Shown: positions 1 through 52,076 of the stretch, piece by piece
How the letters are laid out: the number at the start of each line of letters is the position of its first letter
Numbering within the stretch: position 1 is the stretch's first letter
Source of the DNA: an uncultured bacterium
GTDB lineage: Bacteria > Methylomirabilota > Methylomirabilia > Rokubacteriales > DASRDR01
NCBI GenBank assembly: GCA_964416315.1
Contig: CAYQDR010000004.1
Coordinates: 17,147-81,146, forward strand
Length of the DNA: 64,000 nt
Reading direction: 5' to 3'
The notes under the pieces: model-generated
Told to the model about the DNA's origin: nothing
Databases searched by the model: none
Seen by the model: the letters and a program-made list of their open reading frames with translations, nothing else
Program-made: the position numbers and the translations under genes

Positions 1-1652
1 CCGGGCTCCGGGCGACGGTCCGACAGCTCGCGAAAGACGGGGTGACCTCGCTCGCGGTGTGCTTCCTCCACGCCTACGTGAACCCGGCCCACGAGCGCCA
101 GGCGGCGGAGATCGTCCGTCAGGAGGCGCCCCACATCGCGGTGAGCCTCTCTTCCGAGGTTTCCCCCGTGATCCGCGAGTACGAGCGGACGTCCACGACC
201 GTCGTCAACGCTTACGTGATGACGACCGTCCGCGACTACCTCGAGCGGCTCGAGCGGGCGCTCGCCGACCTCGGGTACCGGGGGCGGCTCTTCGTCATGC
301 AGTCGGGAGGCGGCATCGCCACCGCGGAGACGATGGCCCGCTTCCCGGTGCGGATGATCGAGTCGGGTCCCGCCGCGGGGGCCCTCATGGCCGCCGCGTA
401 CGGCAAGGTCACCGGCCATCCCGACCTCGTCGCCTTCGACATGGGGGGGACGACGGCCAAGCTCTCCCTGGTCGCGGGCGGCCGGCCGCAGACGATCCGC
501 GAGTTCGAGCTCCACCGGGTGCGGCTGCAGCCGGGGAGCGGGATCCCCATGAACATCCAGGCCATCGACCTCGTCGAGATCGGCGCCGGCGGAGGCTCCA
601 TCGCGCGCGTCGGGATGGGCGTGATCACGGTGGGCCCCGACTCGGCGGGCGCCGACCCGGGCCCCCTCTGCTACGGGCTCGGCGGCCGGGAGCCCACGGT
701 CACCGACGCGGACCTCGTCCTCGGCTACCTGAACCCCGAGTACTTCCTGGGCGGGCGGATGCGGCTCGACCTGGAGGCGGCGCGGCGCGGGATCGAGGCC
801 GAGATCGCCCGGCCGCTCGGGCTGTCGCTCGCCGAGGCCGCGTGGGGCATCCACCAGCTCGTCAACACCAACATGGAGCTGGCGACGCGGGTGGTCTCGA
901 TCGAGCGCGGCTACGACCCGCGCCAGCTCGCCCTCGCCGCCTTCGGCGGGTCCGGCCCCGTCCACGGCTGCCGGCTCGCCCAGGCCCTCCGGATCCCGCG
1001 CGTGATCCTGCCCGCGGCCGCGGGGGTGACCTCCGCCATCGGCCTCCTCGCCGCGGAGGTGAAGTTCGACCTCTCGCGCTCGTACGTGACGCGCCTCGGG
1101 GCGCTCGACCCGGGCCACTTCCGCCGGATCGTGGAGGAGATGACGGCGGCGGGGAGCGAGGTGGTCCGCGAGGCCGGCGTGACCGGGCCGCTCACGGTCG
1201 CGCGGACGGCCGACCTCCGTTACGTGGGACAGGGCTACGAGCTGACGGTCCCGCTGCCGGACGGCCCGATCGGGGACGACACCGCGGAGCGCCTCCGCGC
1301 GGCGTTCCACTCGGTGTACGCCCAGCGCTACGGCTACGCTGACCCGAAGGCGGAGGTCGAGCTCGTGACCGTGGGGGTCAGCGTGATCGGCGTCGGGCCG
1401 GACGTCCGGCTGCCGGAGCACCGCTCGCCCGCGCGGGACCTCGACGAGGCGCGGAAGCCGGACCGCTCGGTCTACTTCCCGGAGTTCCGCGCGTACCGCC
1501 CCTGCCCCATCTACGACCGGGCGCGGCTGCCGGTCGGCGCCCGGCTCGCGGGGCCGGCGGTCGTCGAGGAGCCGGACTCGACGACCGTGCTCCCGCCCGG
1601 CGCCGTGGCGGAAGTGGACCCCCGGGCGAACCTCCTGGTGAGCTTCCCGTGA
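1..1652 (+). CDS. hyuA: hydantoinase/oxoprolinase A subunit (HyuA family), 5'-partial at window edge
   Basis: ORF 42..1652 stays open to the window start. The translation shows the HyuA-type ATPase fold motifs (DMGGTTAK, ...GGGSIA...). Its stop overlaps the hyuB start (ATGA). Confidence 0.8.
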   Translation, partial: GLRATVRQLAKDGVTSLAVCFLHAYVNPAHERQAAEIVRQEAPHIAVSLSSEVSPVIREYERTSTTVVNAYVMTTVRDYLERLERALADLGYRGRLFVMQSGGGIATAETMARFPVRMIESGPAAGALMAAAYGKVTGHPDLVAFDMGGTTAKLSLVAGGRPQTIREFELHRVRLQPGSGIPMNIQAIDLVEIGAGGGSIARVGMGVITVGPDSAGADPGPLCYGLGGREPTVTDADLVLGYLNPEYFLGGRMRLDLEAARRGIEAEIARPLGLSLAEAAWGIHQLVNTNMELATRVVSIERGYDPRQLALAAFGGSGPVHGCRLAQALRIPRVILPAAAGVTSAIGLLAAEVKFDLSRSYVTRLGALDPGHFRRIVEEMTAAGSEVVREAGVTGPLTVARTADLRYVGQGYELTVPLPDGPIGDDTAERLRAAFHSVYAQRYGYADPKAEVELVTVGVSVIGVGPDVRLPEHRSPARDLDEARKPDRSVYFPEFRAYRPCPIYDRARLPVGARLAGPAVVEEPDSTTVLPPGAVAEVDPRANLLVSFP

Positions 1653-3424
1653 GCCGCCCGGACCCCATCACCCTGGGCGTCATCTGGGGCGCCTTGCAGT
1701 CCATCACGGTCGAAGTGGGGACGACCGTCCACCGGACGGCGCACTCGCAGCAGGCGCGCGAGGGGCAGGACTTCTCCGTCTGCCTCTTCGACCCCGAGGG
1801 GCGCATGACCGCCCAGGGCCCGTACAGCCCGGGCCACATGGGGGCCATGGCCTTCGCCGCCCGGAACGCCATCGCGGCCTTCCCGGGCCGGCTCGAGCGC
1901 GGGGACGTCGTCCTCTTCAACAGCCCCTTCCTCGGCTCGGGCCACTTTCCCGACTTCTTCATGATCCAGCCGGCCTTCCACGACGACGGTCGCCTCATCG
2001 GGTTCGCCGCCAACATCCTCCACCACACGGACGTGGGCGGGATGCGTCCGGGCAGCCAGGCCGTGGAGGGCGTCTTCGACTACTTCCAGGAGGGCCTGCA
2101 CGTGCCCCCGATCCGCCCCTGGAAGAGCGGCGAGGAGCAGGAGGACGTCTTGGCCCTCATCCTCGCCAACACGCGGATGGCGGAGTCCATGCTCGGCGAC
2201 CTCCGCGCCCAGCGGAACTCCCTCCGGGTCGGGGAGCTGCGGCTCATGGAGCTGGTCCAGCGCTACGGCTACGAGACCGTGCAGGCGGCGGTCACCGAGG
2301 TCATGGACCGGACGGAGGCGAAGGTCCGCGCGGCGATCCGCGCGATCCCGGACGGGGTCTACCCGTTCGAGGACTTCATGGACGACTGCGGGCCGGGCAC
2401 GGACCCGATGCGGCTCGTCGTCACGGTGACGGTGCGGGGCGAGGACATCCTCATCGACTTCGCGGGGACGGGCCCGCAGACCGCGTCGGGGATGAACTCC
2501 TACGTCAACTACACCCGCTCGTACTGCTACGCCGCGGTCAAGTGCCTCACCGACCCCTACGGTCCGCAGAACGACGGCGCGTTCCGCCCGGTGCGGATCG
2601 AGGCGCCCCTCGGCTCGTTCCTCAACCCCCGCCCGCCGGCCGGCGGGGGGCCGCGGGCGGTCTTCTGCTACCGGATCTTCGACGCCGTGATCGGCGCCCT
2701 CGCCCCCGCGCTCCCCGACCGCGTGACCGCCGCGGGCTCGCACTTCGCCAACCCCACCTTCGGCGGCTTCGACCCCCGGCGGAACCGCCGGACGGTGATC
2801 TACGAGCTGGTGCTCTCCGGGACGGCCGCGCGTCCCGACCGCGACGGCTGCGAGGCGATGGCGATGGCCTTCAACGCGTCGAACATCCCGGTGGAGTCGC
2901 AGGAGGCGAACCAGCCCGTCCTCGTCGAGCGCTTCGAGCTCTGCCGCGACTCGGCGGGCGCCGGACGCTTCCGCGGCGGAACGGGGATCCGCCGCGACAT
3001 GCGCCTGTTCCTCCGGCAGGGCCAGCTCACGAACAACACCGAGCGGCAGCGCTTCGCGCCCTGGGGGCTCTTCGGCGGCCGCCCCGGGCAGCCGGGGTCG
3101 ACGCGCTTGAACCCCGGGACGCCGCGCGAGCGGCAGATCCACTCGAAGGCCTCCGAGAGCTTCGAGTACGGCGACGTCGTCTCGTTCCAGCAGCCCGGGG
3201 CCGGCGGCTACGGGCCGCCCTGGGACCGCGACCCTGGGGCGGTGCTCCGCGACGTGATCGAGGACTACGTCTCGCTCGAGGGTGCCCGGCGGGACTATGG
3301 CGTCGTCATCGACCCGGCGACGCTGACCGTGGACGAGGCGGCGACCGGGGCGGCGCGCGAGGCGATGCGCGCCGCGGCGCCCGACCCCCTGCCCGTCGTC
3401 ACGCGCCGCGGGCCGCTCTGGTGA
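1649..3424 (+). CDS. hyuB: hydantoinase B/oxoprolinase (HyuB family)
   Basis: 591-aa ORF with HyuB-like sequence throughout and high GC3. Translationally coupled to hyuA. Confidence 0.85.
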   Translation: MSRPDPITLGVIWGALQSITVEVGTTVHRTAHSQQAREGQDFSVCLFDPEGRMTAQGPYSPGHMGAMAFAARNAIAAFPGRLERGDVVLFNSPFLGSGHFPDFFMIQPAFHDDGRLIGFAANILHHTDVGGMRPGSQAVEGVFDYFQEGLHVPPIRPWKSGEEQEDVLALILANTRMAESMLGDLRAQRNSLRVGELRLMELVQRYGYETVQAAVTEVMDRTEAKVRAAIRAIPDGVYPFEDFMDDCGPGTDPMRLVVTVTVRGEDILIDFAGTGPQTASGMNSYVNYTRSYCYAAVKCLTDPYGPQNDGAFRPVRIEAPLGSFLNPRPPAGGGPRAVFCYRIFDAVIGALAPALPDRVTAAGSHFANPTFGGFDPRRNRRTVIYELVLSGTAARPDRDGCEAMAMAFNASNIPVESQEANQPVLVERFELCRDSAGAGRFRGGTGIRRDMRLFLRQGQLTNNTERQRFAPWGLFGGRPGQPGSTRLNPGTPRERQIHSKASESFEYGDVVSFQQPGAGGYGPPWDRDPGAVLRDVIEDYVSLEGARRDYGVVIDPATLTVDEAATGAAREAMRAAAPDPLPVVTRRGPLW

Positions 3425-3475
3425 CCGGAGACCCTCGCCCCGACCCTCTCCCTGGACGGGAGAGGGAATGACCCG

Positions 3476-3531
3476 ATGCAGACGTTCGTCCAGCTCCTGA
3501 TCGGCGGGATCCTCCAGGGCGGGATCTACGC
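3476..3531 (+). repeat. 56-bp direct repeat, copy 1 of the livH 5' end (ATGCAGACGTTCGTCCAGCTCCTGATCGG...)
   Basis: Matches 4363..4418 with one mismatch. Preceded by the strong SD GGGAGAGGGAA. Confidence 0.9.
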
Positions 3532-3969
3532 CGGCCGGTGGCCTTCGAGGAACGGGTTGACCGCGCGCACCGCCCCGTAGACACGGTCGTGTTGGAAGTC
3601 CTCGGAGCACAGTTCGGCCAGCCCGTACTCCTCCGCGTACGCCCACAGGTGGGCGTCGAACCAGTCGAGCTGGTACGTCGCCCAGCCCCGGATCGCCGTG
3701 CGCACCAGGTTCTCGGTCGGATAGAGCACGACGAACTGCGTCAGCAGTTCCTCGGCCTCGCGCCGCGCGTCGGCCGGCGAGAGCAGCGGCTCGCCTCCAT
3801 CCAGAGGTCGCGTGACGGCCGCCACGAACTCGACGATGCCTTGGTGCGGGATGCGCACGCTGTCCTCGAGGAGCCCGCGACGCAGGAGACCGGTGGCAAT
3901 CTCCTGCTTGGCGGGAAACCGCGGGTCGAAGCGGTAGACGAGGACGTTCGTGTCAACGAGCGCGGCCAC
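3526..3969 (-). CDS. vapC: PIN-domain toxin VapC
   Basis: GTG start, N-terminal VDTNVLV motif, conserved acidic residues, ~147 aa. Overlaps the end of the upstream antitoxin gene. Confidence 0.8.
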   Translation of the reverse strand: MAALVDTNVLVYRFDPRFPAKQEIATGLLRRGLLEDSVRIPHQGIVEFVAAVTRPLDGGEPLLSPADARREAEELLTQFVVLYPTENLVRTAIRGWATYQLDWFDAHLWAYAEEYGLAELCSEDFQHDRVYGAVRAVNPFLEGHRPA

Positions 3970-4240
3970 GGTCGTAGAGCTCCTGGCGACGCCACCCGCG
4001 CCCCTGGGCGGTGCGCGATGGGCGCCGCTCAGCCTCGCGCCGCCGCTGGCGCTCCGTCGCCGCGTCGAAGAGTCGGGCCCTCGCCGCAACATCGAGCGTA
4101 GAGGCGCGCCTGCCGGCGGGCAGGACCCGGATGGCGTCCCCGGCGGGGACCCACTCGATCTGGTCCCCGGGGCGGATACCGTACTGCTCGGCGATGGCTT
4201 TCGGGACCGTGACCTGGAGCTTGCTCGTGACTTTCGCCAT
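3953..4240 (-). CDS. vapB: AbrB/MazE (SpoVT_AbrB)-type antitoxin VapB
   Basis: MAKVTSKLQVTVPKAIAEQYGIRPGDQIEWV swapped-hairpin motif, 95 aa. Lies immediately upstream of and overlapping vapC. Confidence 0.75.
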   Translation of the reverse strand: MAKVTSKLQVTVPKAIAEQYGIRPGDQIEWVPAGDAIRVLPAGRRASTLDVAARARLFDAATERQRRREAERRPSRTAQGRGWRRQELYDRGRAR

Positions 4241-4362
4241 GTCCTTACTCTAGCAAGGACGAAATCCTTGTCAAGAGCCGGCGCGACCCCGGAGCGAGGA
4301 TCGAGTCGGCGACCGGCGGCGGTCTATGACGCCGGTCGCTGCGCGTGGTAGGCTCCTGGCCC

Positions 4363-4418
4363 ATGCAGACGTTCGTCCAGCTCCTGATCGGGGGGATCCT
4401 CCAGGGCGGGATCTACGC
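4363..4418 (+). repeat. 56-bp direct repeat, copy 2 (the actual livH start)
   Basis: Matches 3476..3531. Confidence 0.9.
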
Positions 4419-5223
4419 GCTGGGGGCCTTCGGCCTCTCCATCATCTTCGGGGTGCTCCGCGTCCTCAACGTCGCTCACGGCGACTACCTGATGCTCGGC
4501 GGCATGCTCACCTACTGGCTCTACACCACGTGGACCCTGCCGCCGTGGATCGCGCTGCTCGTCGTCTTCCCGGTCTTCTTCGCGGGCGGCTTCCTGGTCG
4601 AGCGCCTCTTGATCCGGCCGATCGCCGGGATGCCGCACCACGAGTTCCTCGTCGCCTCGATCCTCATCACCCTCGGCCTCTCGCTCGCGATCGAGGACGT
4701 GACGGCCTTCGCGCTGGTCCAGCCGGTCAAGGGCATCGACTACTTCCTCCCGCCGCTCCGCGTGGGCACGATCGTGGTCTCGTCCCTGCGGCTCCTCTTC
4801 CTCGCCATCATCGTGGCGCTGACCATCGGGATCCACCTCTTCCTGCGCCGGAGCTTCTGGGGGAAGGCGCTGCGTGCCGTGATGGAAGACCGCGAGGGGG
4901 CGATGCTGGCCGGGATCGACATCGGCACCGCGTCCGCCGTGGCGTTCGCCCTGGGGACGGCGCTCACGGCGACGGCGGGCGTCTTCTTCGTCACCCTCAT
5001 CCCGGTGGACCCCCACATCGGCATCCCGCTCACGCTCAAGTACCTCGCCATCATCGTCCTCGGCGGCGTCGGGAGCCTCCCCGGCGCGCTGGCGGGGAGC
5101 GTGGTGCTCGGGCTCGCGGAGTCGCTCGTCTCCTTCTACGTCGGCGCGCAGTGGTCGCTCACCGTCGCCTTCCTCGTCCTGATCGCGATCCTGCTCCTCC
5201 GGCCGCGCGGGCTCCTCGGCTGA
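4363..5223 (+). CDS. livH: branched-chain amino acid ABC transporter permease LivH
   Basis: MQTFVQLLIGGILQGGIYALGAFGLSIIFGV... is a typical LivH N-terminus. The ORF-track start at 4345 is a GTG extension. Confidence 0.85.
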   Translation: MQTFVQLLIGGILQGGIYALGAFGLSIIFGVLRVLNVAHGDYLMLGGMLTYWLYTTWTLPPWIALLVVFPVFFAGGFLVERLLIRPIAGMPHHEFLVASILITLGLSLAIEDVTAFALVQPVKGIDYFLPPLRVGTIVVSSLRLLFLAIIVALTIGIHLFLRRSFWGKALRAVMEDREGAMLAGIDIGTASAVAFALGTALTATAGVFFVTLIPVDPHIGIPLTLKYLAIIVLGGVGSLPGALAGSVVLGLAESLVSFYVGAQWSLTVAFLVLIAILLLRPRGLLG

Positions 5224-6152
5224 TGCGCCGGCTGCCCGTGCTCCTCGGCCTCGCGCTCTTCGCCGTCTTCGCGGGGCTCCCGTACGTGACGACGACGTAC
5301 CGGGTCGCGTTCCTCCTCGCGGTCTTCATCGCGGCCATCCTCGCCCAGAGCTACGACTGGGTCGGCGGCCACATGGGCTACCTCAACCTCGGCCACGCCT
5401 CGTTCTTCGGGATCGGGGCGTACACCTCCGGGATCCTCCTCAAGGCCGGCTGGCCGATCGGGCTCGCGTTCACGGCCGGCGTCCTGCTCGCGGTCGCGTT
5501 CGCCCTCCTCATCAGCTACCCCTTCTTCCGCCTCCGCGGCGCCTACTTCGCCCTCGCGACGTTCGGCCTCGTGGCCCTCCTCGAGCTGCTCGCCTCGAAC
5601 CTGTCGTGGCTGACCGGTGGCTCGGAGGGCCTCACGATCGCGACCGGCTACCAGCTCTACGGCGCCTACTACGCGGCGCTGATCCTGCTGGCCCTCGTCG
5701 TCACGGCCACGGCGTGGCTCGCGCGCTCGCGGCTCGGGCTCGCGCTGGTCTCGATCCGCGAGGACGAGGAGGTGGCCGGCGCGTTCGGCGTCAACGCCTA
5801 CGCCGTCAAGTGCCTGGCGTTGATGGCGAGCGCCGCCGTGGCAGGGCTCGCCGGCGGGCTCTACTGCTGGTACCTCACCTACATCATCCCGGCGACCGTC
5901 TTCGGGCTGGACGTCGCCATCGGCCCGATCGTCATGGCGATGCTCGGGGGCTCGGGCACCGTGGTCGGGCCGCTCCTCGGGGCGTTCGTCGTGGACGTGG
6001 TCCGCGAGGTCCTGCGGCTCAAGACGCAATACCTCGCGCTCACGGTCTACGGCGCCATCCTCGTCCTCGTCGGGCTCTTCCTCCCCGGCGGCCTCGCCGA
6101 GCCCCACCGCTGGCGGCGGCTGGCGGTCCGCCTCCGGCGACGCGCGACCTGA
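5223..6152 (+). CDS. livM: branched-chain amino acid ABC transporter permease LivM
   Basis: ATG overlaps the livH stop (TGATG). LivM-like TM protein. Part of the artefactual 4326..6152 ORF. Confidence 0.85.
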   Translation: MRRLPVLLGLALFAVFAGLPYVTTTYRVAFLLAVFIAAILAQSYDWVGGHMGYLNLGHASFFGIGAYTSGILLKAGWPIGLAFTAGVLLAVAFALLISYPFFRLRGAYFALATFGLVALLELLASNLSWLTGGSEGLTIATGYQLYGAYYAALILLALVVTATAWLARSRLGLALVSIREDEEVAGAFGVNAYAVKCLALMASAAVAGLAGGLYCWYLTYIIPATVFGLDVAIGPIVMAMLGGSGTVVGPLLGAFVVDVVREVLRLKTQYLALTVYGAILVLVGLFLPGGLAEPHRWRRLAVRLRRRAT

Positions 6153-6218: not shown

Positions 6219-6473
6219 ATGAAAGACAAGAAGGCCGCGCCCAGGAGCACGAGCTCGAAGAGCAAGAAGGCGTCATCACGCGTGACCGCGGCGAAGTGGG
6301 AGGCGGCGGCCGCGGCTGGCGCCGCCGCGCGACGCGCGCAGCGGCAGGCGATCGGGCAGGCCTCGGTGGAGAAGGTCGCCAGGCGCCAGTTCCAGAAGAC
6401 GCGCGGGCAGGCGATCCAAGCTCACATCGGCGCACGGGACCGGCGCCAGCAGGCGAGGCGTGACTCCCGCTGA
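6219..6473 (+). CDS. small highly basic (K/R-rich) hypothetical protein
   Basis: 84 codons with GC3 about 87%. Internal ATG (MKDKK...) of ORF 6198..6473. No clear SD. Confidence 0.35.
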   Translation: MKDKKAAPRSTSSKSKKASSRVTAAKWEAAAAAGAAARRAQRQAIGQASVEKVARRQFQKTRGQAIQAHIGARDRRQQARRDSR

Positions 6474-11040: not shown

Positions 11041-14000
11041 ATGTCGGGATTGAGAGTCTCCGGGCGCCTCCGGGATGTGAGGGCGCCCGCCCCTTCCTCG
11101 GCGGCCATGCCCGAGTCCCCAGACCCCATCCGAGCGGAGCTCTTCAGCGCCGAAACGCTCGAGCAGCATGCGGAAGGCCTGGCAGGCCAGCGCGCCCTCG
11201 CCGAAGGCGGGGCCGGTCGGCCCCTGTCGCCGCGCGTGCGGGACAGCGGACGCGTCCTGGTCCAGTGTTATCGCGCGATCGCCGCGGTGATTCGAGAGGA
11301 AGCCGCCATCACTCCGGCCGCGGAGTGGTTCGTGGACAACTTCTACATCGTGGAGGACGTCCTGCGGGAGATCCGCGAGGACCTCCCGCCCGGGTTCTAC
11401 CGCCAGCTGCCAAAGCTCGTGGAAGGCCCGCTCGAGGGCTACCCCCGCGTCCTCGGCCTGGCCTGGGCCTTCGTCGCCCACACCGACAGCCGCTTCGAGC
11501 CCGAGACCCTCCAGCGCTTCGTCCGGCGCTTCCAGCGCGTGCAGCCGCTGACCATCGGTGAACTCTGGGCCGTCCCGATCGCCCTCCGGATGGTGCTCGT
11601 GGAGAACCTCCGGCGTCTGGCGGAGCGGATCGTGACGGGACGCGCGGCCCGCCATGACGCGGACGCGCTGGCGAACGAGTTGCTCGGGCTCGGCGGGCGA
11701 CCGGCGCAACCTCTGGCCTTCCAGCGGCTCGAGGCCGCCGCCTTGCCGGTCCCGTTCGCGGTCCAGCTGGTTCAGCGCCTGCGCGAGCAGGACCCCGAAT
11801 CGACGCCCGCGCTGCGATGGCTCGACGAACAGCTGTCGGCGGTGGGCACGTCGCCGGACGAGCTGGTGCGAGTGGAACACCAGGACCAGGCCGCGATGAA
11901 CGTGACGGTCCGCAACGTGATCACGAGTATGCGGACGATGACGACGTTCGACTGGGCGGCCTTCTTCGAGAGCGTCAGCCTGGTCGATGACATGCTGCGC
12001 GCCGACAGCTCCTTCGGCGCCATGGATTTCGCGACCCGCGACCGATACCGCCACGCGATCGAAGACCTGGCCCGAGGCTCCCGGCAGTCCGAACTCGACG
12101 TCGCCCGGCAGGCCATCGCCCGCGCCAAGCGCGCCGCGTCGGTTCCCCCGCCGTCCGCCGCCCCCCCTGCGGATCGATATCAAGATCCCGGCTACTACCT
12201 GATCTCCAAAGGGCGGCCGCTCTTCGAGAAGGAGATCGGCTACCGGGTCCCGGTACCGCGGCGGCTTCTTCGAGCCTACGTGGGCAGGGCGACGTCGAGC
12301 TATCTCGGCAGTATCGGCCTCGTCACGGGATTGCTCCTGGCCCTCCCTCTCCTCGCCGCGCATGCCGCCGGCGTGAGCCCCGTGGCCCTCGTCCTGCTGG
12401 GACTCGTCGCCCTGATCCCGGCCTCCGACCTCGCGGTCGCGCTCATCAATCGCGCCGTCACGGAGCTGCTCGGGCCGAGACCGCTGCCGCGCCTCGAGCT
12501 CCGCGACGGCATCCCGCCACCGCTGCGCACTCTCGTGGTGATGCCGACCCTGCTGACGAGCGACGCCGCGATCGAGGCGCACCTCGCTCGCCTGGAGATC
12601 CACTATCTCGCCAATCCGGACGGCGCCATCCACTTCGCCCTCCTCTCCGACTGGATGGACGCGCCCGCGGAGACCATGCCACAGGATGATCGGCTCCTGG
12701 CGCCGGCGATCGAGGGCATCGCGCGCCTCAACCGACGCCATGGTCCCGCTCCCGACGTGGGTGCCCGGTTCCTCTTGCTCCACCGCCGACGGGCCTGGAA
12801 TGCGGGGGAAGGCACGTGGATGGGGTGGGAGCGCAAGCGCGGGAAGCTCGACGAGCTCAACCGTCTTCTCCGCGGCGCGCAGGACACGACGTTCATGGCG
12901 ACGGGCGGACGGCCGCCCGACGTGCCCCCCGCCGTCCGCTACGTCATCACCCTCGATGCCGACACCCATCTGCCCCGAGGCGCCGCCATCCGCCTCGTCG
13001 GCACGATCGCCCATCCCCTCAACCGGCCGGCGTTCGATGCCCGGGTGGGCCGTGTCGTCGACGGGTACGCCGTGCTGCAGCCGCGGATCACGCCCACGAT
13101 GCCCGCCGATCGCGACACGTCCCGCTTCCAGCGGATCTACGCCGGCCCGGCCGGGATCGATCCCTACGCGGCCGCGATCTCCGACGTCTACCAGGATCTA
13201 TTCGGCGAGGGCTCGTACACCGGGAAGGGCATCTACGATGTGGGCGCGTTCGCCGCGGCCCTGGAGGGCCGCGTGCCCGAGAGCGCGCTCCTGAGCCACG
13301 ATCTCTTCGAGGGGCTCTTCGCCCGGGCGGGACTCGTCACCGACATCGAGCTCTTCGAGGAGTTCCCGACCGACTACGAGGTCGCCGCCGCCCGGCAACA
13401 CCGGTGGGCGCGCGGCGACTGGCAACTGCTCCCCTGGATCATCCGGGGAGACGCCGCGGCCACGAAACGTCGGCGATGGATCCCGCTCATCGGCCTGTGG
13501 AAGGTCGCCGACAATCTCCGACGGACCCTGTCGGCGCCGACCGCCTGGCTCACGCTCGTCGCGGGATGGACGCTCCCCCACAGCCCGCCCCTCGTGTGGA
13601 CGACGTTCGTGCTCGGCACGATCGCGCTCCCGGCTCTGGTGCCCGCGTTCGCCGAGGTGATCCCCAGACGCTCCGGAATCTCCAAGCGGACCCACCTCCG
13701 GGCCGTCGGACGGAGCTTCGCCCTCGCCGCATCCCAGATCGCGCTGGGGACGACGTTCCTCGCCCATCAGGCGTGGCTCATGAGCGACGCGATCGCGCGG
13801 ACGCTCGCCCGCCTGTATGTGACCCGCCGGCGGCTGCTCGAGTGGACGACCGCCGCGCAGGCCAAATCCGGACTGTCCGCCGACGTCACCGGCGTGTATC
13901 GGCGGATGGGCGGCGCGCTCCTCCTCGCCGTGGCGGCCGGGGCGCTCGTCGCCTTCGTGCGGCCGGCAAGCTGGGTGGTCGCCGCGCCGTTCGTCCTCCT

Positions 14001-17000
14001 CTGGGCACTCTCGCCGCTCGTCGCTCGATGGGTCAGTCGCCCACCGGGCGTCGATGCCGGGCAGCGTCTGTCTCCGCAGGATGCCAGGCTCCTCCGCTCG
14101 ACGGCACGCCGCACGTGGCGGTTCTTCGAGGCCTTCGTCGGCGCGAACGACACCTTCCTGGCGCCCGACAACTTCCAGGAAGACCCGAACCCGGTCCTCG
14201 CGCATCGCACGTCGCCGACCAACATCGGACTCTACCTTCTGTCAACGCTCGCCGCCCGCGATCTCGGCTGGCAGGGCACCCTCGATACCGTCGACCAGCT
14301 GGAGGCGACCCTCGCAACGATGCGTCGCCTCGAGCGCTTCCGGGGCCACTTCTACAACTGGTACGACACGACCGACCTCCGCCCGCTGGAGCCCCGCTAC
14401 GTGTCCACCGTGGACAGCGGAAATCTCGCGAGCCAGCTCCTCGTCCTCGGGAATGCCTGTCGCGGCGCGATCGATCGCCCGCTGCTCCACCGTGAGGCCT
14501 TTGCCGGGATCGAAGACGCCGTGCTGCTCGTCCACGAGGCGGCGAGCGCCCTCGCGGACGACCGGCGCACGCAAACGGTCACGCTCGGCCTTCTCGACCA
14601 GGCGCGCGAGGCCCTGGCCGGAACGCTCCGCGAGCCGCCGGTCACGCCGGCGGACTGGGCCGCCCGCCTCCGGCGGCTCGCCGTCCAGGCCGACGCACTT
14701 GTCGACATCGCGCGCACGTTGACGGCGGAGCGCGGCGACCACGAGGACTCCGACGTTCTGGCCTGGGCCCGGGCGGCACGGGCCACCATCGCGAGCCACG
14801 GCCGCGACCTCGAGACGATCGTGCCGTGGGCGCCGCACCTCCAGGCCGTCCTGGCCGATCTCGCCACCGCGTCGCCCGAGGCCGTGAGGGCGATCGGGAC
14901 CCTCCTCTCCTCGTCACCCACCCCCGCCGACTTGGCCGACCGGTGCCAAGCCGCGATTGATGACCTCACCACCCTTCGGGGGCGCCTGCCGCGCGACGAG
15001 GCCGCCGGTGGGGGTGCGATCGCACGCCTCGACGAGACCATCGGCCAGCTGGAGCGCTCCGCCGTGGCGTCCCGGACGCTCGTCCAGCGCCTGTCCACGG
15101 TCGCCCGGGTCACGAAGGAACTCTTCCACGCGACGGAGTTCGGTTTCCTCTTCGATCCCACTCGCAAGATCTTCTCGATCGGCTATCGCGTCACGGACGG
15201 CAGCCTCGATGCCGGTGGATACGACCTCCTCGCCTCCGAGGCGCGGCTGGCCAGCTTCATCGCGATTGCCAAGGGGGAGGTCCCGGTCTCGCACTGGTTC
15301 CGGCTCGGCCGCCCGATGACCCCGGTCGCGCTCGGGTCGGCGCTCGTCTCCTGGTCCGGCTCGATGTTCGAGTATCTGATGCCGGCGCTGGTCATGCACG
15401 CCCCGTCGGGCAGCCTCCTTCAGCAGACGTATCGCCTCGTCGTCCAACGGCAGATGAGCTACGGCGCCGAGCACGGGGTCCCCTGGGGGATCTCGGAATC
15501 GGCCTCCAACGTGCGCGATCTGGATCTGACCTACCAGTACTCGAACTTCGGGGTCCCGGGGCTGGGTCTCGAGCGGGGGCTCAGCGAGGACCTGGTCGTC
15601 GCACCCTACGCGAGCGCCCTGGCCGCGATGGTGGACCCGGGAGCCGCCGCTCGGAACCTGTCACGGCTCGTCGAGGCGGGGGCCCGGGGGCGGTATGGGT
15701 TTTACGAGGCGCTCGACTACACGAGATCGCGACTCCCGGAAGGGCAGCGGGTGGCGATCGTTCGCGCCTACATGGCGCACCACCAGGGCATGACGCTCGT
15801 CGCGCTGGCGAATGTCCTCCGCGATGGCGTGATGCGCGCCCGGTTCCACGGCGAACCCATCATCCAGGCCACCGAGCTGCTCCTGCAGGAGCGTGCGCCA
15901 CGGGACGTCGCGGTCGCGCGACCGCGCGTGGAGGAAGTGCAGGCGGCGGCCCACGCCCGCGACTTCGCGGCGCCGGTCTTCCGCCAATTCACATCACCGC
16001 ACGACGCGACCCCGCGGACGCACCTGCTCTCCAACGGGCGATATGCCGTGATGCTGACGACCGCGGGCTCGGGGTACAGCCGCTGCGCCGACCTCGGGAT
16101 CACGCGATGGCGCGAGGATGTCACCCGGGATCACTGGGGGACGTACCTCTTTCTGCGGGATGTCCAGAGCGGCGCGGTCTGGTCGGCCGGGTACCAGCCC
16201 ACCGGCGTGGAGCCGGACGCCTACAGGGTGACGTTCTCGGAAGACCGCGCAGAGTTCCATCGGCGCGACGGCGCGATCACGACCACGCTCGAGGTGCTGG
16301 TCTCTCCGGAAGACGACGCCGAGCTCCGCCGCGTCTCGATCACGAACCTCGGCGTACAGGCGCGAGAGATCGAGCTGACGTCCTACGCCGAGCTCGTGTT
16401 GGCGCCGCCGTCGGCGGATGCCGCGCACCCGGCCTTTTCCAGCCTCTTCGTCCAGACGGAATCGGTGGCCGACCTCGGTGCCCTGCTGGCGACCCGCCGC
16501 GTCCGGTCAGCGGCCGAGCCGTCCATCTGGGCAGCCCACATCGTCGTCGTCGAGGGTCAGTTCGGGGGCGGCGCCCAGTACGAGACCGACCGGGGACGGT
16601 TCCTCGGGCGGGGGCGGGGGACCCGCACGCCGATGTCGGTCATCGACGGCCGGCCCCTGTCGAACACGGCGGGCTCGGTGCTCGACCCGATCTTCAGCCT
16701 CCGACGGCGGGTCCGACTGGCACCGGGCGAGAGCGCCCGCCTCGTCTTCTCCACGCTCGTCGCCCCGTCGCGCGAAGGCGCCGTGGCGCTGGCCGACAAG
16801 TATCGCGACCCGGCGACCTTCGAGCGCACGGTCACCCTCGCCTGGACGCAGGCGCAGGTCCAGCTCCACCATCTCGGGGTCGAGACGGACGAGGCCCATC
16901 TCTTTCAAGAGCTGGCGAGTCGGATCCTCTACTCCGACCCGACGCTGCGGGCGTCTGTGGACGTGCTGAAGCGCAGCACGTCGGGGGCTTCGGCCCTCTG

Positions 17001-27129: not shown

Positions 27130-28839
27130 TCAAGCCGGGCGCTCAACCCCCGGATGCAGCGCGAGGACGCGCTCGCGGAGGGACTCGAGGCGCGACAGCT
27201 CGGCGCGAACCGCCTCGGCGCCGGCCACGTGGCGGTCCCGTGCCCGTCGCAGCGCGCGCTCCGCCGAAGTCGAGAGCCCACGCAGGAGGGATACGATCTC
27301 CGATTCGAGTCGGCGCCGGTCTTCGGCCGCACGGTCGACGAGGTCGTTGGACACCCGAGCGCTGTTCGTGACGAGAAGCCGTTCGAGGTAGCGGCGAGCG
27401 TCCTCCCGGGCAGCCACGATCGCCCGTCGGCGCGGACGCAGCAGCGTCGCCAACCGCCCTCCGGGACGCGGGCTCGCGACGGTGAGGAGGTCGTGAAAGT
27501 AGAAACGACGCTTCGCTCGAAACGTGGTCTCCCCCACGAGCTCGCCGGACAATCGGGCGAGTGTCGGGTCGCCGGAAGTTCTCAAGCGCGCCAGGAATGC
27601 GTTAGCCCCTTCGATGAACCGTCCGGTCGCACGACGATAGAGCTCCTCGGCCCTCGGCTCGACATCCCGCAGCCACTCCTCGATGACCCGGCGGGCGATC
27701 CCTCGGGCGAGCTCCATCGCGCGGTCTCGCACCCCTCGCTTCGCCCGTGCGTCCCCGCCCATGAGGGCCCGGTCGAGCTCGCCCAGCGCTGCCGGGAGGG
27801 CTCGCGCGACGCAGGCGCCACGCTCGGCGTCGAACGCGCTCACCAGGTCGGCCTGTGCGGCGGCCAACAACGGCCGGATGTCCGCGAGGGTGCGCTCGGC
27901 GTCCGCGATGCTCCGTCGGAGCTCCGCGATCCGGTCGTCGAGCGGGCGCAGGAGCGCCTCCCGGTGCTCGTCGATCGCTCGGAGTAGACGGCCCGCCACG
28001 CGGCTGACGCCGCGGGTGGCCGCCGCCCGCAGGAGTTCGACGCCCGAATCGCGGGCGAGCGCCTCCAGCTCCGCCTCGAGTGCCTTCCAATCCCGCGTGA
28101 TCTGGCCGGACAGCCGCTCGGCCGCGCTGACCTCGAGGAACTCGACCGGTCGGGAGAGCCGTCTCGTGAGCAGCGCCTCCGCGAATTGGCGAGCCTCCTG
28201 ACGGTCGGCATCGGACAGGCGATCGGCCTTGCTCAGCACGAAGATGAGCCGCTCGGTCTGCCGCGCCACCTCCTCCACCAGGGCCAGCTCCTCTCCGGAA
28301 AGCGGAGGATCGGCGCCCAGGACAACCAGCGCGGCGTCCACGTGGGGGACGAAGTCGCGTGCAATCTTCGTGCTGGCAGAAAACACCGATCCGATGCCCG
28401 GGGTGTCGACGAAGCACATTCCAGACGCGAGCAAGGGGCTCGGAACGAAGACTTCGACGCCCTCGACCCGCTTCCGGTTCTCGGGGTTCTGCCCTTCGGT
28501 CACGTACGCTGCCAGCGCCGCCGGATCGATTTCCTCCCACGCGGAGCCGGCGCGTCGGACGCGCGCCGCGCGACGCGGCCCGTGTCTGACGACCGTCAGC
28601 ACGGCCGTCACGGGCACGACGCCGGTCGGGAGCAGAGGGTCGCCGATGAGCGCGTTGAGAAGCGTGGACTTGCCGCGCTTGAACTGACCAGCGCACGCGA
28701 CGAACGAGCGCCCCTCGGCCAGCCGCTCGGCGAGCGACTGTCCCTCAGCGGCCAGTTCGTCCGCGCCGACGTCGGCCGCGACCTCGACGAGCTGGCGCAG
28801 GACCTCCGTGAACTCGGCGTCGGCAGGCGGCTGGAACAA
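27130..28839 (-). CDS. bacterial dynamin-like GTPase (dynamin family, BDLP/DynA/LeoA-like)
   Basis: G1 GQFKRGKSTLLNALIG, G2 PVT, G3 DTPG, G4 SKAD. About 570 aa from TTG 28839. The upstream 90 codons of the track ORF are R/S-rich junk that overlap pup. Confidence 0.75.
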   Translation of the reverse strand: MFQPPADAEFTEVLRQLVEVAADVGADELAAEGQSLAERLAEGRSFVACAGQFKRGKSTLLNALIGDPLLPTGVVPVTAVLTVVRHGPRRAARVRRAGSAWEEIDPAALAAYVTEGQNPENRKRVEGVEVFVPSPLLASGMCFVDTPGIGSVFSASTKIARDFVPHVDAALVVLGADPPLSGEELALVEEVARQTERLIFVLSKADRLSDADRQEARQFAEALLTRRLSRPVEFLEVSAAERLSGQITRDWKALEAELEALARDSGVELLRAAATRGVSRVAGRLLRAIDEHREALLRPLDDRIAELRRSIADAERTLADIRPLLAAAQADLVSAFDAERGACVARALPAALGELDRALMGGDARAKRGVRDRAMELARGIARRVIEEWLRDVEPRAEELYRRATGRFIEGANAFLARLRTSGDPTLARLSGELVGETTFRAKRRFYFHDLLTVASPRPGGRLATLLRPRRRAIVAAREDARRYLERLLVTNSARVSNDLVDRAAEDRRRLESEIVSLLRGLSTSAERALRRARDRHVAGAEAVRAELSRLESLRERVLALHPGVERPA

Positions 28840-28846
28840 CTCGTGC

Positions 28847-29047
28847 CTATTCTCCGCCGCGCTGGACGTAGCTCTTGACGAACTCCTCCGCATTCTCCTC
28901 GAGGACGTCGTCGATGTCTTCGAGAATCTCGTCGAGGCCCTTCTTGAGCGCCCTGCCCTTCTCGGCGACCCTCGGGTTACCCCCGGGCGCTTCGCTCTCC
29001 GTCTCCGGCGTGACTGGCCGCTTGATCTGGCGATCCTGCTCGGCCAT
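28847..29047 (-). CDS. pup: prokaryotic ubiquitin-like protein Pup (GGE C-terminus)
   Basis: 66 aa. ...LDEILEDIDDVLEENAEEFVKSYVQRGGE closely matches the conserved Pup C-terminal helix and di-Gly terminus. SD GGGAGG 6 nt upstream. Confidence 0.8.
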   Translation of the reverse strand: MAEQDRQIKRPVTPETESEAPGGNPRVAEKGRALKKGLDEILEDIDDVLEENAEEFVKSYVQRGGE

Positions 29048-30204: not shown

Positions 30205-31089
30205 GTGAGGGAGGCGCGTGAGGGAGGGTCCGACACCCCGGCGCTCCGCCTCCGCACCTACCTGACGCCCAGCATCCCCGAGAGCCTCTTCAGCTACCTC
30301 GCCGGATACCTGGGCCAGTGCCTGGGGGTCCCCACCGAACTGCAGGTCGAGACCCGGCACTCCGGTCCCCCGCGAGACGCGGCCGACCCGTTCACCGGGG
30401 GCGAGGTGGACGTGGGCTTCTTCTGCGCGCCGCCCTACATCTGGCTCTGCGAGCGCCCTGGCCCTCCGGTGGAGCTCCTGCCGCTCGGACTCGTGTTCGC
30501 CGATGCCCGAGCCGCCGGCCGGCCGGTCTACTTCTCGGACATCGTCGTCCGCGCAGACCATCCGGCACGGTCGTTCGCGGACCTGGTAGACGCTCGATGG
30601 GGCTACAACGACCGTGAATCCCTGAGCGGCTACTACTCGGTGCTCCAGGCGGCGGCTGACCACGGCGCGGACGCCTCGTTCCTCGGCCGCCTGCGCGAGA
30701 CCGGGAGCCACCTGGCCTCGCTCCGCGCCCTTCGCAGAGGCGCCATCGACGCCGCCGCCATCGACTCCACGGTGCTCGCGCTGCGCTGGCGACGGGACCG
30801 CACGCTCCGGACCGCCCTGCGCGTCGTGGACTCGCTCGGGCCCTGGCCTATCCAGCCGATCGTCGTGAGGCGGACCCTACCGGTCCGGGTAAAGGCCGCC
30901 ATGGCGTCAGCCCTCGGGGCGCTGGTCCACGCCCCGGCGCGGCGGCGGATCCTGCGCCGGTGGCTCATCTCGGGGGTCGCCCCGATGACGGACGCGGACT
31001 TCGACGTGGAGCGGGCGGCGCTCGGGCGGGCTCAGGCGCTGGAACAGGCCTGGGGCGCGATGGTGGGAGGCCGCCAGAACTCTCGGTAG
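30205..31089 (+). CDS. PhnD/SsuA-type (phosphonate/phosphite ABC) substrate-binding family protein
   Basis: Very high GC3. GTG start. No signal peptide and no cognate ABC genes adjacent. Confidence 0.5.
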   Translation: MREAREGGSDTPALRLRTYLTPSIPESLFSYLAGYLGQCLGVPTELQVETRHSGPPRDAADPFTGGEVDVGFFCAPPYIWLCERPGPPVELLPLGLVFADARAAGRPVYFSDIVVRADHPARSFADLVDARWGYNDRESLSGYYSVLQAAADHGADASFLGRLRETGSHLASLRALRRGAIDAAAIDSTVLALRWRRDRTLRTALRVVDSLGPWPIQPIVVRRTLPVRVKAAMASALGALVHAPARRRILRRWLISGVAPMTDADFDVERAALGRAQALEQAWGAMVGGRQNSR

Positions 31090-36595: not shown

Positions 36596-36620
36596 CCCCC
36601 CTCACCCCACCCTCTCCCCC
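36596..36620. repeat. perfect GC-rich palindrome CCCTCTCCCCCG/CGGGGGAGAGGG (REP-like)
   Basis: 12-bp arms. A related motif lies at 62895..62925, upstream of dppC. Confidence 0.6.
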
Positions 36621-36638
36621 GCGGGGGAGAGGGCATCA

Positions 36639-51858: not shown

Positions 51859-52076
51859 GACACGATGCGAAACACATCCTCGTCGGTCAGGATCCCCTGG
51901 GCCTCCGCCAGCGGCAGCAGGGCGCGGCGCGAGCGCTCGAAGCGCAGCAGCGCGATCTGGCGACGAAGCGCGTCGCGCACGACCTCGCTGCGGCTGCGCC
52001 CGAGCTGGCGGCACAGCCGATCCAGTTCGCGCTGGAGCTTCGCATCCAGCCGGATGGTGACGGTGGCGGCCTTCAT
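51855..52076 (-). CDS. vapB: ribbon-helix-helix (CopG-type) antitoxin VapB
   Basis: MKAATVTIRLDAKLQRELDRLC... 73 aa. Confidence 0.75.
   Translation of the reverse strand: MKAATVTIRLDAKLQRELDRLCRQLGRSRSEVVRDALRRQIALLRFERSRRALLPLAEAQGILTDEDVFRIVS

Follow-up and report, generated by a model that had tools for sequence, protein, structure and literature searches.

A vapBC toxin-antitoxin cassette between two copies of the livH start in uncultured Rokubacteria: evidence for an insertion with long target duplication

Introduction

Movement of chromosomal toxin-antitoxin cassettes without a mobility gene is poorly documented. In an uncultured member of Rokubacteria (Methylomirabilota), a vapBC cassette lies between two copies of the beginning of livH, the gene of an ABC permease. 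How did the cassette come to be there, and how is livH expressed now that it is separated from hyuB? We address both questions in a 64-kb window, the whole stretch of DNA that was analysed. [quoted passage not shown]

Results

The start of livH occurs twice

The preliminary description of this DNA had reported a 56-bp repeat with one mismatch, an AbrB-type vapB and a PIN-domain vapC on the opposite strand between its copies, a 34-codon ORF opened by copy 1 that runs into the vapC 3′ end, and an intact livH starting at copy 2. We found these features as reported. The repeat, ATGCAGACG…TACGC, lies on the plus strand at positions 3476-3531 (copy 1) and 4363-4418 (copy 2), with 55 of 56 positions identical. 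When counted from the ATG, the 56-mer matches at copy 2 without mismatch and at copy 1 with 1 mismatch; no third match was seen in the 64 kb at ≤3 mismatches, and none in 100 shuffles. Ungapped extension gave 59 nt (3473-3531 / 4360-4418) with 2 mismatches. Gapped blastn extended the repeat to 3469-3547 vs. 4357-4432, because GGCCTTCG is present past both copies, 8 nt on from copy 1 and 6 nt on from copy 2. Both copies align to the single livH start of every orthologue.

Copy 2 is the 5′ end of an intact livH (4363-5223, plus strand) that encodes a 286-AA permease of the LivH type (PF02653 BPD_transp_2, E 7e-36) and aligns full-length to its orthologues; the match to copy 1 may reach 4432. LivH also has a match, P0124, at 92%. 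A livM-type permease gene follows on the same strand (5223-6152; PF02653, E 1.5e-35; JGI gene call), with its ATG overlapping the livH stop codon. Copy 1 holds the first 56 nt of livH in the native position and is now a relic: it is collinear with the livH start of a relative that lacks the cassette (L049), and the native SD-like region remains beside it. The 34-codon ORF that it opens (3476-3580, plus strand; translation MQTFVQLLIGGILQGGIYAGRWPSRNGLTARTAP*) comprises LivH residues 1-19 followed by out-of-frame antisense vapC; it has no Pfam match and was called as a gene in 1 JGI assembly only.

Between copy 1 and the cassette lies a junction patch (3532-3547), CGGCCGGT followed by GGCCTTCG, which gives VapC residues 142-146. 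From its sequence the patch may be either livH nt 57-70 with 6 nt swapped for 8 nt, or the 3′ flank of the cassette. The first option is favored by GGCCTTCG, which matches livH at 4425-4432 with a +2 shift, and the second by a CCGGCCG at equal offset in a cassette of the same family (L020). The duplication is 56 nt long, or up to 70 nt if the patch is included, and begins ≤3 nt from the livH ATG.

The vapBC cassette and the borrowed stop codon of vapC

The insert of 831 nt between the copies contains vapC, vapB, the vapBC promoter, an 88-nt spacer, and nothing else. The vapC gene (3526-3969, minus strand, GTG start) encodes a 147-AA PIN-domain toxin (PF01850, E 2.5e-12; 47.9 bits vs. a cut-off of 23.6), whose residues D6, E47, D105, and D124 are invariant across 17 aligned family members. 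Its start overlaps by 17 nt the upstream vapB gene (3953-4240, minus strand) for a 95-AA antitoxin of the AbrB/SpoVT/MazE type (PF04014, E 9e-11, 42 bits; TIGR01439 AbrB family, 32.4 bits vs. a cut-off of 28.3). The pair is therefore composed as expected of a VapBC module, with a PIN toxin carrying the conserved acidic residues and an overlapping upstream gene for an antitoxin with a DNA-binding domain. VapC falls outside the curated NCBIfam subfamily TIGR00028 (27 bits vs. a cut-off of 73.6).

We identified a putative promoter/operator of vapB at 4241-4274 on the minus strand, with a -35 TTGACA (4274-4269), a 16-nt spacer, and a TG-extended -10 TAGAGT (4252-4247). The region contains the palindromes AAGGA-N5-TCCTT and CCTT-N8-AAGG. 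In a consensus-promoter scan of 3300-4600 this was the sole match, at 10 of 12 positions, and shuffles gave none. The -10 box ends 6 nt 5′ of the vapB ATG, a geometry predicted for a leaderless transcript. This promoter block is kept in cassettes of the family that lie in unrelated contexts (L017, L018, L020, and L024), and among family members in such contexts homology is limited to the stretch from the -35 box through the vapC stop. [quoted passage not shown] The 88-nt spacer (4275-4362) lies outside the conserved cassette core, is not native intergenic sequence, and came with the cassette. A search of the window and all fetched loci for a donor of the spacer or of the junction patch gave matches only in the relative L018 and in near-identical strains. 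A scan of 3300-4600 against Rfam returned nothing meaningful, no terminator was predicted in the locus, and no vapBC paralogue was found elsewhere in the window.

The end of vapC is altered. VapC has 6475 homologues, and most of the best 120 are 141 AA long; in 11 of 15 other aligned homologues the protein ends with NPF[LRV] at residue 141. The window VapC continues past this residue as EGHRPA*. Its own stop codon is gone, and the TAG now in use (3526-3528) lies within copy 1, as the antisense of livH codons 17-18. The frame ends at this TAG because of the 8-for-6-nt junction patch: with the livH sequence restored at the patch, as in a pristine duplication, VapC would reach 818 AA and run into antisense hyuB. 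The locus shows repair after insertion, the toxin gene having captured a stop codon. Compared with L018, the dN/dS ratio is 0.12 for vapC and 0.21 for vapB.

Empty and occupied sites in relatives

As the preliminary description had suggested, we compared the synteny of hyuB and livH among relatives. In about 15 related Rokubacteria loci hyuB is followed by livH without the vapBC cassette, and in 11 of these the intergenic distance is only 13-80 nt. Such empty sites include L001, L003, L025, L027, L028, L030, L031, L033, L050, and L049. The last matches the window at 95.4% identity over 1.09 kb; it also shares the intergenic region with its palindrome, and its livH has an ATG start. These empty sites, L049 included, identify vapBC as an insertion, and the alignment of both repeat copies to their single target places it at the livH start, as had been proposed. 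The same slot holds other cargo in other relatives: a Phd+PIN pair (L002), a YceI gene (L004), and a gene for a 537-AA FG-GAP protein (L029). No flanking direct repeats were seen in any of the 9 other inserted loci (5 of the vapBC family, 1 of the L018 type, Phd+PIN, YceI, and FG-GAP). We considered a habit of the vapBC family of inserting with duplications and dropped it for this reason; judged by these loci, the duplication in the window is a one-off and not a family habit.

The relative L018 has the order hyuB-vapCB-livH without a duplicated livH start, an arrangement that the preliminary description had named as evidence against its own reading. Formally, then, such a case exists. Yet L018 lacks not only copy 1 but also the native intergenic region, so that the hyuB stop abuts the truncated vapC end, and hence we read it as a later deletion. 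L018 and the window have the right junction and the spacer in common, and their truncated vapC end, GAGGAA, is identical. The dS values against L018 are similar in the cassette (0.38-0.48) and the flanks (0.20-0.36). The common junction, spacer, and vapC end, together with these dS values, argue for one old event. As the window, L049, and more distant relatives all have the native intergenic region and L018 lacks it, L018 would be the derived form, most simply by a 123-nt deletion (GA microhomology) in a window-like ancestor. The L018 cassette also has a 30-nt in-frame vapC deletion and a GTG start of vapB. The relatives form a natural series at one site: empty (L049 and about ten others), locked in without the relic (L018), and occupied by other cargo (L002, L004, L029).

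L018 and L049 are each represented by one short contig, that of L049 being a mosaic when compared with the window. On average L049 is nearer to the window than the cassette-bearing L018 (95.4% vs. 91.4% identity), with 15 vs. 19 differences in the first 200 nt of livH. We considered the closeness of L049 as proof of a precise excision but downgraded this view, because the contig is mosaic and its first 200 nt of livH differ from the window about as much as those of L018 do.

The upstream region and predicted expression of livH

The gene upstream, hyuB (1649-3424, plus strand, stop TGA 3422-3424), encodes a hydantoinase/oxoprolinase B subunit (PF02538 Hydantoinase_B, E 2e-162) with 85-88% amino-acid identity to orthologues that have livH next to them. 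The native hyuB-livH intergenic region (3425-3475) holds a REP-like palindrome at 3444-3466, CCCTCTCCC-tggac-GGGAGAGGG, with a 9-bp stem, and the intergenic segment folds at -21.7 kcal/mol. A strong SD had been described before copy 1. An SD-like sequence is indeed there, GGGAGAGGG (3458-3466), with a duplex energy of -8.2 kcal/mol against an assumed anti-SD sequence, but it is the 3′ arm of this stable and recurrent palindrome. The same palindrome is found 5′ of livH in L003, L025, L028, and L049, and also in other intergenic regions, e.g., at window position 36611 and in the hyuA/hyuB spacer of L001.

At copy 2, the anti-SD duplex energy of livH is -5.5 kcal/mol in the window and -2.9 kcal/mol in L018, compared with -7 to -12.5 kcal/mol in most orthologues. 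The dN/dS of livH against L018, i.e., since the split of the two, is 0.145; by this measure livH is under purifying selection and still functions. We located a putative new livH promoter in the imported spacer (4326-4354, plus strand), with a -35-like ATGACG (4326-4331), a 17-nt spacer, and an extended -10 TGgTAGGCT (4346-4354) with its end 8 nt upstream of the ATG; transcription is predicted to start at about 4362-4363. The -10 agrees with the consensus at 3 of 6 positions plus the TG extension, and the -35-like box at 4 of 6, which is below the threshold of the consensus scan. In L018 the extended -10 is kept as TGgTAGTCT. Between the window and L018, 15 of 58 distal spacer positions differ vs. 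4 of 30 ATG-proximal ones (74% vs. 87% identity). Of 23 called starts in this genome, 4 have a TANNNT motif 6-8 nt upstream (expected 0.055, P = 3e-7), and 10 of 14 such -10 motifs in the window precede coding-like ORFs.

Copy 2 of livH shows the sequence features of a leaderless start, a -10 hexamer about 6-8 nt upstream and no SD, which suggests that its transcript is leaderless or near-leaderless. The dN/dS of 0.145, the intact livH in L018 without the old SD, the conserved -10 box, and the enrichment of such boxes all point to a promoter of its own. On these sequence features, the rewiring of livH to its own, possibly leaderless, promoter is more likely than a simple loss of expression. 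The earlier proposal that translation is lowered and that transcription has to pass through antisense vapBC probably covers only part of what happens. It appears that the host gene has exchanged SD-dependent, operon-coupled expression for a promoter of its own. The locus would serve well in teaching and lends itself to reporter tests. As for the start codon, we compared 13 livH orthologues from empty sites in more distant relatives, of which 11 begin with GTG. A GTG to ATG change as an adaptation to leaderless expression was considered and rejected, since the L049 empty site already has ATG and several of the leaderless-type starts in the window are GTG.

Discussion

History of the insertion and alternative explanations

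We propose that the ancestral operon hyuA-hyuB-livH-livM took up one illegitimate insert of ~0.8 kb, carrying the vapBC promoter/operator, vapB, vapC truncated at its last codon, and ~88 nt of foreign flank. The insert would have entered livH at about nt 56-70, duplicating the first 56 nt, possibly 70 nt, without a transposase or integrase. The likely cause would be a switch of the replication template to a vapBC locus, with a return immediately 5′ of the livH ATG; alternatively, a staggered break may have been filled in and ligated. Copy 1 would thereby have become a 34-codon relic that still follows the native palindrome/SD, while the stopless vapC would have come to terminate at the TAG from antisense livH codons 17-18, with the 8-for-6 patch setting the frame. 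The intact livH, severed from the hyuB-proximal SD, most likely uses the extended -10 promoter in the imported spacer, which runs divergent from the predicted leaderless vapB promoter. In the L018 lineage a later loss of 123 nt would have removed copy 1 together with the native intergenic region, so that the cassette became locked in.

Some properties of the repeat count against this explanation. If copy 1 were a neutral relic dating back to the window/L018 split, ~5-8 changes would be expected, compared with 1 in 56 seen (Poisson P about 0.03-0.002), and the repeat copies therefore look younger than the insertion. In the 56-nt segment the window and L018 have 4 differences, and in the 88-nt spacer 19 of 88 positions. 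If the copies are indeed too young, one would have to invoke gene conversion, a copy 1 under constraint, or repeated rounds of excision and re-entry. Moreover, a duplication that begins at the ATG is unexpected for a random event and would need selection or ATG-centred microhomology. The position of the junction at the ATG would be accounted for by a donor whose leaderless gene begins ...CTGGCCCATG. The variants of the repeat copies in near-identical strains are GGG GGG, GGC GGG, and GGC GGA, and copy 1 of L017 is identical to copy 2 of the window. The segment is unusually conserved among orthologues, L050 differing from copy 2 only at the first base of the start codon, and because of this the polarity of the variants cannot be set; an ordering of the variants via L018, L049, and L050 was dropped, as homoplasy was too high.

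These same properties are accommodated by a Campbell-type capture, in which circular or linear DNA with vapBC, the spacer, and a short 5′ segment of livH recombined homologously at the livH start, with pop-out and re-entry among close strains; the flanking repeats would then have been produced by the crossover. Young-looking repeats around an old-looking cassette, repeat variants that differ among near-identical strains, and an empty site (L049) that averages nearer to the window than the cassette-bearing L018 are all in line with it, and the repeat starts at the ATG, where homology to a livH-bearing donor would start. A similar life cycle has been proposed for restriction-modification units (PMC2853133). 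Yet an initial illegitimate event would still be required to join the first livH fragment to the cassette, 56 nt is close to the lower limit for efficient RecA recombination, and no circle-junction sequence was seen. In addition, the nesting is insecure, given the mosaic L049 and its 15 vs. 19 differences. We regard this course of events as unlikely.

A bolder form of this idea, which we hold to be quite doubtful, is that the repeats are kept near-identical by repeated pop-out and re-entry of the cassette plus one repeat through homologous recombination among close strains, and that the vapBC mRNA has a tail antisense to livH. If true, the cycle would represent a transposase-free mobile form of a toxin-antitoxin module. 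Where the vapBC mRNA ran on beyond the borrowed stop into copy 1, its 3′ tail would be perfectly antisense to the (leaderless) livH mRNA over the first ~50 nt of the latter, linking expression of the transporter to toxin-antitoxin transcription.

It is improbable that the L018-like state is ancestral, with the cassette set cleanly between the stop of hyuB and the ATG of livH and an empty-site allele joined on later. L018 does have the cassette without a duplication, and repeat copies younger than the cassette would fit such an order of events. However, an illegitimate join would be needed exactly at the existing hyuB/vapC junction, the GAGGAA end being identical, and the native intergenic region would have to be re-imported. 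A single 123-nt GA-microhomology deletion, as in the explanation by one illegitimate insertion, is simpler, and L018 has other decay, namely the 30-nt vapC deletion and the GTG vapB start.

Direct repeats around a small accessory cassette could also be read as att sites or as a duplication that a mobile element or an integron cassette made at its target site, and toxin-antitoxin cassettes are common integron cargo. Unlike in insertion sequences and transposons, there is no transposase in the insert, its ends are not paired by inverted repeats, and the duplication measures 56-70 nt vs. the typical ~2-14 bp. Nor was an integrase or transposase found among the called genes of window positions 1-30 kb. 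The repeat is unique livH coding sequence and not a tRNA gene, the Rfam scan of the region gave no match, and 7 other toxin-antitoxin cassettes and 2 other inserts have no repeats. Site-specific or transposase-mediated integration is thus very improbable.

Finally, we asked how sound the assembly is. The region is 100% identical in JGI 3300009444, JGI 3300025157, and a Logan contig of SRR5747861, which come from different pipelines, although the reads may be common to all three. The left junction was found again in SRR12113385 (L017; 3 SNPs over window 3355-3969), and the right junction in SRR22388227 (L051, 99.1% identity) and SRR22388076 (L018), each with its own SNPs. The right side of L017, with a divergent vapB and a Phd-like neighbor, was left out, as identity breaks sharply at 3970 and the contig is possibly chimeric. 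The longest exact stretches common to both copies, of 29 and 26 nt, fall short of a 31-mer. Misassembly of the repeat is on these data unlikely. A strain-mixture chimera or a spurious duplication, which the metagenome source and the possible common reads might suggest, is scarcely credible in view of the agreement between pipelines, the recurring junctions, and the short exact stretches.

Comparison with known systems

[quoted passage not shown] In NAR, Furuta et al. 2010 (PMC2853133) described restriction-modification units flanked by target duplications of >30 bp and without mobility genes, and insertion with long target duplication was reported also by Nobusato et al. 2000, Gene 259:99. As in the cases of Furuta et al., we see a small addiction unit, an empty site in relatives, and a >30 bp duplication of a unique target, and the insert is far below 20 kb and carries no transposase or integrase. 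In contrast to their definition, the cargo is a type II toxin-antitoxin pair and not a complete restriction-modification system. Other differences from those cases lie in the duplicated target, which here consists of a gene's 5′ end from the start codon onward, in the stop codon, which the toxin gene takes from the duplicated segment, and in the host, which belongs to uncultured Rokubacteria.

The cassette resembles chromosomal VapBC systems with a PIN toxin and an AbrB-type antitoxin in its acidic residues, its upstream overlapping antitoxin gene, and its strong predicted promoter under palindromes, and it belongs to a large paralogous family spread across many genomic contexts. Unlike these systems, its VapC has a predicted 6-residue tail from antisense livH and scores below the TIGR00028 cut-off.

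The arrangement of vapB, and by inference that of livH, is similar to that of leaderless genes of high-GC bacteria, with a -10 box 6-8 nt before the start and no SD (Cortes et al. 2013, PMC3898074; PMC8485053); in M. tuberculosis, toxin-antitoxin transcripts are reported to be mostly leaderless (PMC8485053). Unlike in those examples, the livH -10 (TAGGCT) is weak, and its assignment draws on its TG extension and its conservation in one relative.

A type II pair located between two direct repeats, with a host gene adjoining, is found also in Microcystis aeruginosa PCC 7806 (Klemencic et al. 2021, PMC7935541). There the repeats are given as 152 bp long, identical, and intergenic, with inverted repeats. 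In contrast to the module as described there, the repeats here are 56 nt of coding sequence, and the empty sites confirm the target duplication.

Structure of the hyuB-livH junction

A 56-mer taken from the livH ATG matches the window at 3476-3531 (copy 1, 1 mismatch) and at 4363-4418 (copy 2), as stated in the preliminary description; no further copies at up to 3 mismatches were found in the window, nor any in 100 shuffles. By ungapped extension the repeat measures 59 nt with 2 mismatches, and gapped blastn gives a longer match (3469-3547 vs. 4357-4432) because GGCCTTCG is present after both copies, 8 nt on in copy 1 and 6 nt on in copy 2. Upstream, hyuA and hyuB (1649-3424) lie on the + strand and are followed by a 51-nt intergenic region and copy 1, where a 34-codon ORF begins. 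Between the copies, on the - strand, are vapC (3526-3969), encoding a PIN domain, and the AbrB/MazE-type vapB (3953-4240), with a 17-nt overlap at the vapC start. Copy 2 is the start of an intact livH-type permease gene (286 aa), with livM next.

The arrangement is best explained, with a probability of roughly 0.6, by insertion of vapBC into the livH start with long target duplication and without a mobility gene, livH probably being given a new promoter. An empty site, a duplication >30 bp, an insert <20 kb and no mobility gene, the published criteria of this insertion mode, are all found here. Restriction-modification systems are the cargo for which this mode was described (PMC2853133; Nobusato et al. 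2000, as cited there and in PMC2654758), and a toxin-antitoxin pair lying between two 152-bp direct repeats is known from Microcystis (PMC7935541). The locus belongs to a known mode and is not a new kind; its instructive details are a toxin gene that captures a stop codon, a host gene that probably captures a promoter, and the existence of a deleted derivative. The locus structure does not fit a transposon, integron or att-site model.

Empty sites and recurrence of the junctions

The order hyuA-hyuB-livH-livM is kept in relatives at 82-88% identity and, as the proposed synteny comparison anticipated, livH directly follows hyuB, with gaps of only 13-80 nt in L001, L003, L025, L028, L030, L031, L033 and L050. 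The closest empty site, locus L049 (95.4% identity over 1.09 kb of livH-livM), shares its intergenic region and palindrome with the window, starts livH with ATG, and reads on into ...TACGCGCTGGGGGCCTTCGGCCTC exactly like copy 2. Copy 1 and its upstream sequence therefore represent the native arrangement, and the insert spans everything from ~3532-3548 up to 4362.

What lies between hyuB and livH varies among relatives: a Phd-family antitoxin and PIN pair on the + strand in L002 (5196-5911), a YceI-family gene in L004 (5459-6001), a gene for a 537-aa FG-GAP-like secreted protein in L029 (2153-3766) and 196 nt of non-coding DNA in L026 (3806-4000). No flanking repeats were found at these inserts.

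The locus structure is unlikely to be an assembly artefact. Two JGI assemblies and one Logan contig carry the region at 100% identity; the left junction is also present in SRR12113385 (L017), with its own SNPs, and the right junction in SRR22388227 (L051, 99.1% identity) and SRR22388076 (L018). The mismatch leaves exact stretches of 29 and 26 nt in the repeat, neither as long as a 31-mer. Misassembly of copy 1, the objection raised beforehand, is countered by this recurrence of both junctions in other samples. Compared with window 3355-4280, L017 shows 99.5% identity left of 3970 and an abrupt fall to ~65-80% over vapB; its right-hand neighbour is a Phd-like antitoxin gene, not livH. Recombination that exchanged the antitoxin gene would account for the break at 3970, as would a short contig that is chimeric.

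The vapBC cassette and its borrowed stop codon

At E<=1e-10, 6475 homologues of VapC were found. Where the source names them, the best matches come from Rokubacteria/Methylomirabilota; a majority of the best 120 of the 6475 have a length of 141 aa. Family cassettes in unrelated contexts (L019, L020-L024) share homology with the window only from the -35 box (TTGACAAGGA...) via vapB to the vapC stop codon. GC content is the same in cassette and flanks. The vapB promoter (TTGACA, 16 nt, TG-extended TAGAGT; 10/12 consensus positions) is the only one detected by a consensus scan of 3300-4600, and the vapB ATG stands 6 nt after the end of the -10 box, a leaderless geometry.

Among 15 other aligned homologues, 11 end in NPF[LRV] with an immediate stop at residue 141. 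The window VapC continues past this residue as EGHRPA and a stop, and its last codon and TAG (3526-3531) fall within copy 1; the cassette therefore lacked a stop codon of its own when it arrived. Were the livH sequence intact at 3532-3539, VapC would reach 818 aa by reading on through hyuB in a long antisense frame, and an 8-for-6-nt patch brings the TAG into frame. As judged from short matches, this left junction (3532-3547) would be either altered livH (8-mer match, +2 shift) or cassette 3′ flank (7-mer in L020, same offset).

The neighbour downstream of same-family cassettes is variable between L020-L022 and L023: L023 has an extra 147-aa PIN gene, and L021 and L022 have a 65-aa ORF there. 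Toxin-antitoxin genes appear to accumulate locally near these cassettes (L020-L023).

A probable deleted derivative

Locus L018 is ~89% identical to the window and has the 88-nt spacer between vapB promoter and copy 2 (window 4275-4362), the right junction and the truncated vapC end in common with it. Its hyuB stop directly abuts the vapC end (...TGGTGA followed by GGAAGG...), and window 3425-3547 is absent. The preliminary description had named a hyuB-vapCB-livH order without a duplicated livH start as evidence against insertion; formally L018 has this order, which we read as a later stage of the same insertion. The intergenic loss is derived, because the native intergenic region is found in the window, L049 and more distant relatives; it would have arisen via a 123-nt deletion with GA microhomology. 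Values of dS between the window and L018 are similar in the cassette (vapC 0.38, vapB 0.48) and its flanks (hyuB 0.36, livH 0.20), which indicates a single old insertion. In L018 (1180-1867, SRR22388076), vapC has lost 30 nt in frame (FVVLYPTENL), its borrowed tail is a different one (TTGARGA and a stop, from antisense hyuB), and vapB starts with GTG; this cassette may be decaying.

Translation and transcription of livH

The 'strong SD' reported ahead of copy 1, GGGAGAGGG (3458-3466), is present, yet it is the 3′ arm of a recurrent palindrome, CCCTCTCCC-tggac-GGGAGAGGG. The intergenic segment carrying it has a fold energy of -21.7 kcal/mol. The palindrome occurs again at window 36611, in other intergenic regions of relatives, and upstream of livH in L003, L025, L028 and L049; none would be expected in the window by chance. 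The REP-like form CCTCTCCC-N3-9-GGGAGAGG recurs in intergenic regions of the Rokubacteria lineage (window 3444-3466 and 36611-36632; L001 4161-4181; L003 5962-5982; L014 1190-1212; L025 983-1003; L028 1674-1694), and the 3′ arm of this form may be mistaken for a Shine-Dalgarno sequence. Duplex energies, calculated for an assumed anti-SD sequence, were -8.2 kcal/mol (copy 1), -5.5 (copy 2) and -2.9 (L018), vs. -7 to -12.5 in most orthologues. The SD of copy 2 is weak, in line with the preliminary description, which saw no recognisable SD there.

Despite total loss of the old SD, livH is intact in L018, and dN/dS between the window and L018 is 0.145 for livH (0.144 for hyuB); on these grounds livH has been functional since the insertion. 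An extended -10 box, TGgTAGGCT, ends 8 nt short of the copy 2 ATG, and a -35-like ATGACG lies 17 nt further upstream; in L018 the box reads TGgTAGTCT. The consensus scan of 3300-4600 did not flag this box. Between the window and L018, the spacer differs at 4 of the 30 ATG-proximal nt and at 15/58 of the distal part. Judging by these motifs, the imported spacer would now drive transcription of livH, divergently from vapB, and the livH mRNA is probably leaderless.

TANNNT is rare (103 in 128 kb, both strands counted), and of the 23 starts called by JGI, 4 have it 6-8 nt upstream (0.055 expected, P=3e-7): vapB 4240(-), livH 4363(+), a small gene at 6219(+) and asparaginase 24947(+). Of the 14 TANNNT-N5-9-[AG]TG motifs that the window contains, ten are followed by coding-like ORFs. 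This pattern suggests frequent use of leaderless mRNAs by the organism; leaderless toxin-antitoxin transcripts have a precedent in M. tuberculosis (PMC3898074 and PMC8485053). Further starts with -10-like TANNNT are at 30205, 38596, 41933 and 52837(+) and at 52076(-).

Similarity of the two copies

The copies differ at 1/56 positions, where ~5-8 differences would be expected if the relic were neutral and as old as the window/L018 split. Copy 1 of L017 is identical to window copy 2, and L051 copy 2 reads GGC GGA, like L049. Gene conversion between the copies would fit their likeness, and the local excess of differences in the repeat would be consistent with sequence exchange among strains or from one copy to the other. 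Constraint on copy 1 would fit as well; a possible source of it is a vapBC 3′ tail, which would run antisense to the livH 5′ end. Excision and re-entry of the cassette through the repeats would also fit: the empty-site L049 is on average nearer to the window than L018 is (95.4% vs. 91.4%), a hint of precise cassette loss. However, L049 is mosaic, with the first 200 nt of its livH nearly as distant as those of L018 (15 vs. 19 differences), and the repeat segment is highly conserved among orthologues anyway. Such dynamics at the repeats are possible.

Among strains at least 99% identical, livH codons 10-11 in the repeat read GGG GGG, GGC GGG or GGC GGA. Variant sites are window 4392 and 4395 vs. 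L051 and 3505 vs. L017, a density of 2 in 56 nt, above the 0.9% average.

Elsewhere in the window, 11041-19860(+) encodes a 2939-aa GH94/glycoamylase-domain protein and 27130-28839(-) a dynamin-like GTPase; the gene for Pup, the prokaryotic ubiquitin-like protein (28847-29047(-)), has a stronger SD (-13.9 kcal/mol) than any other gene sampled.
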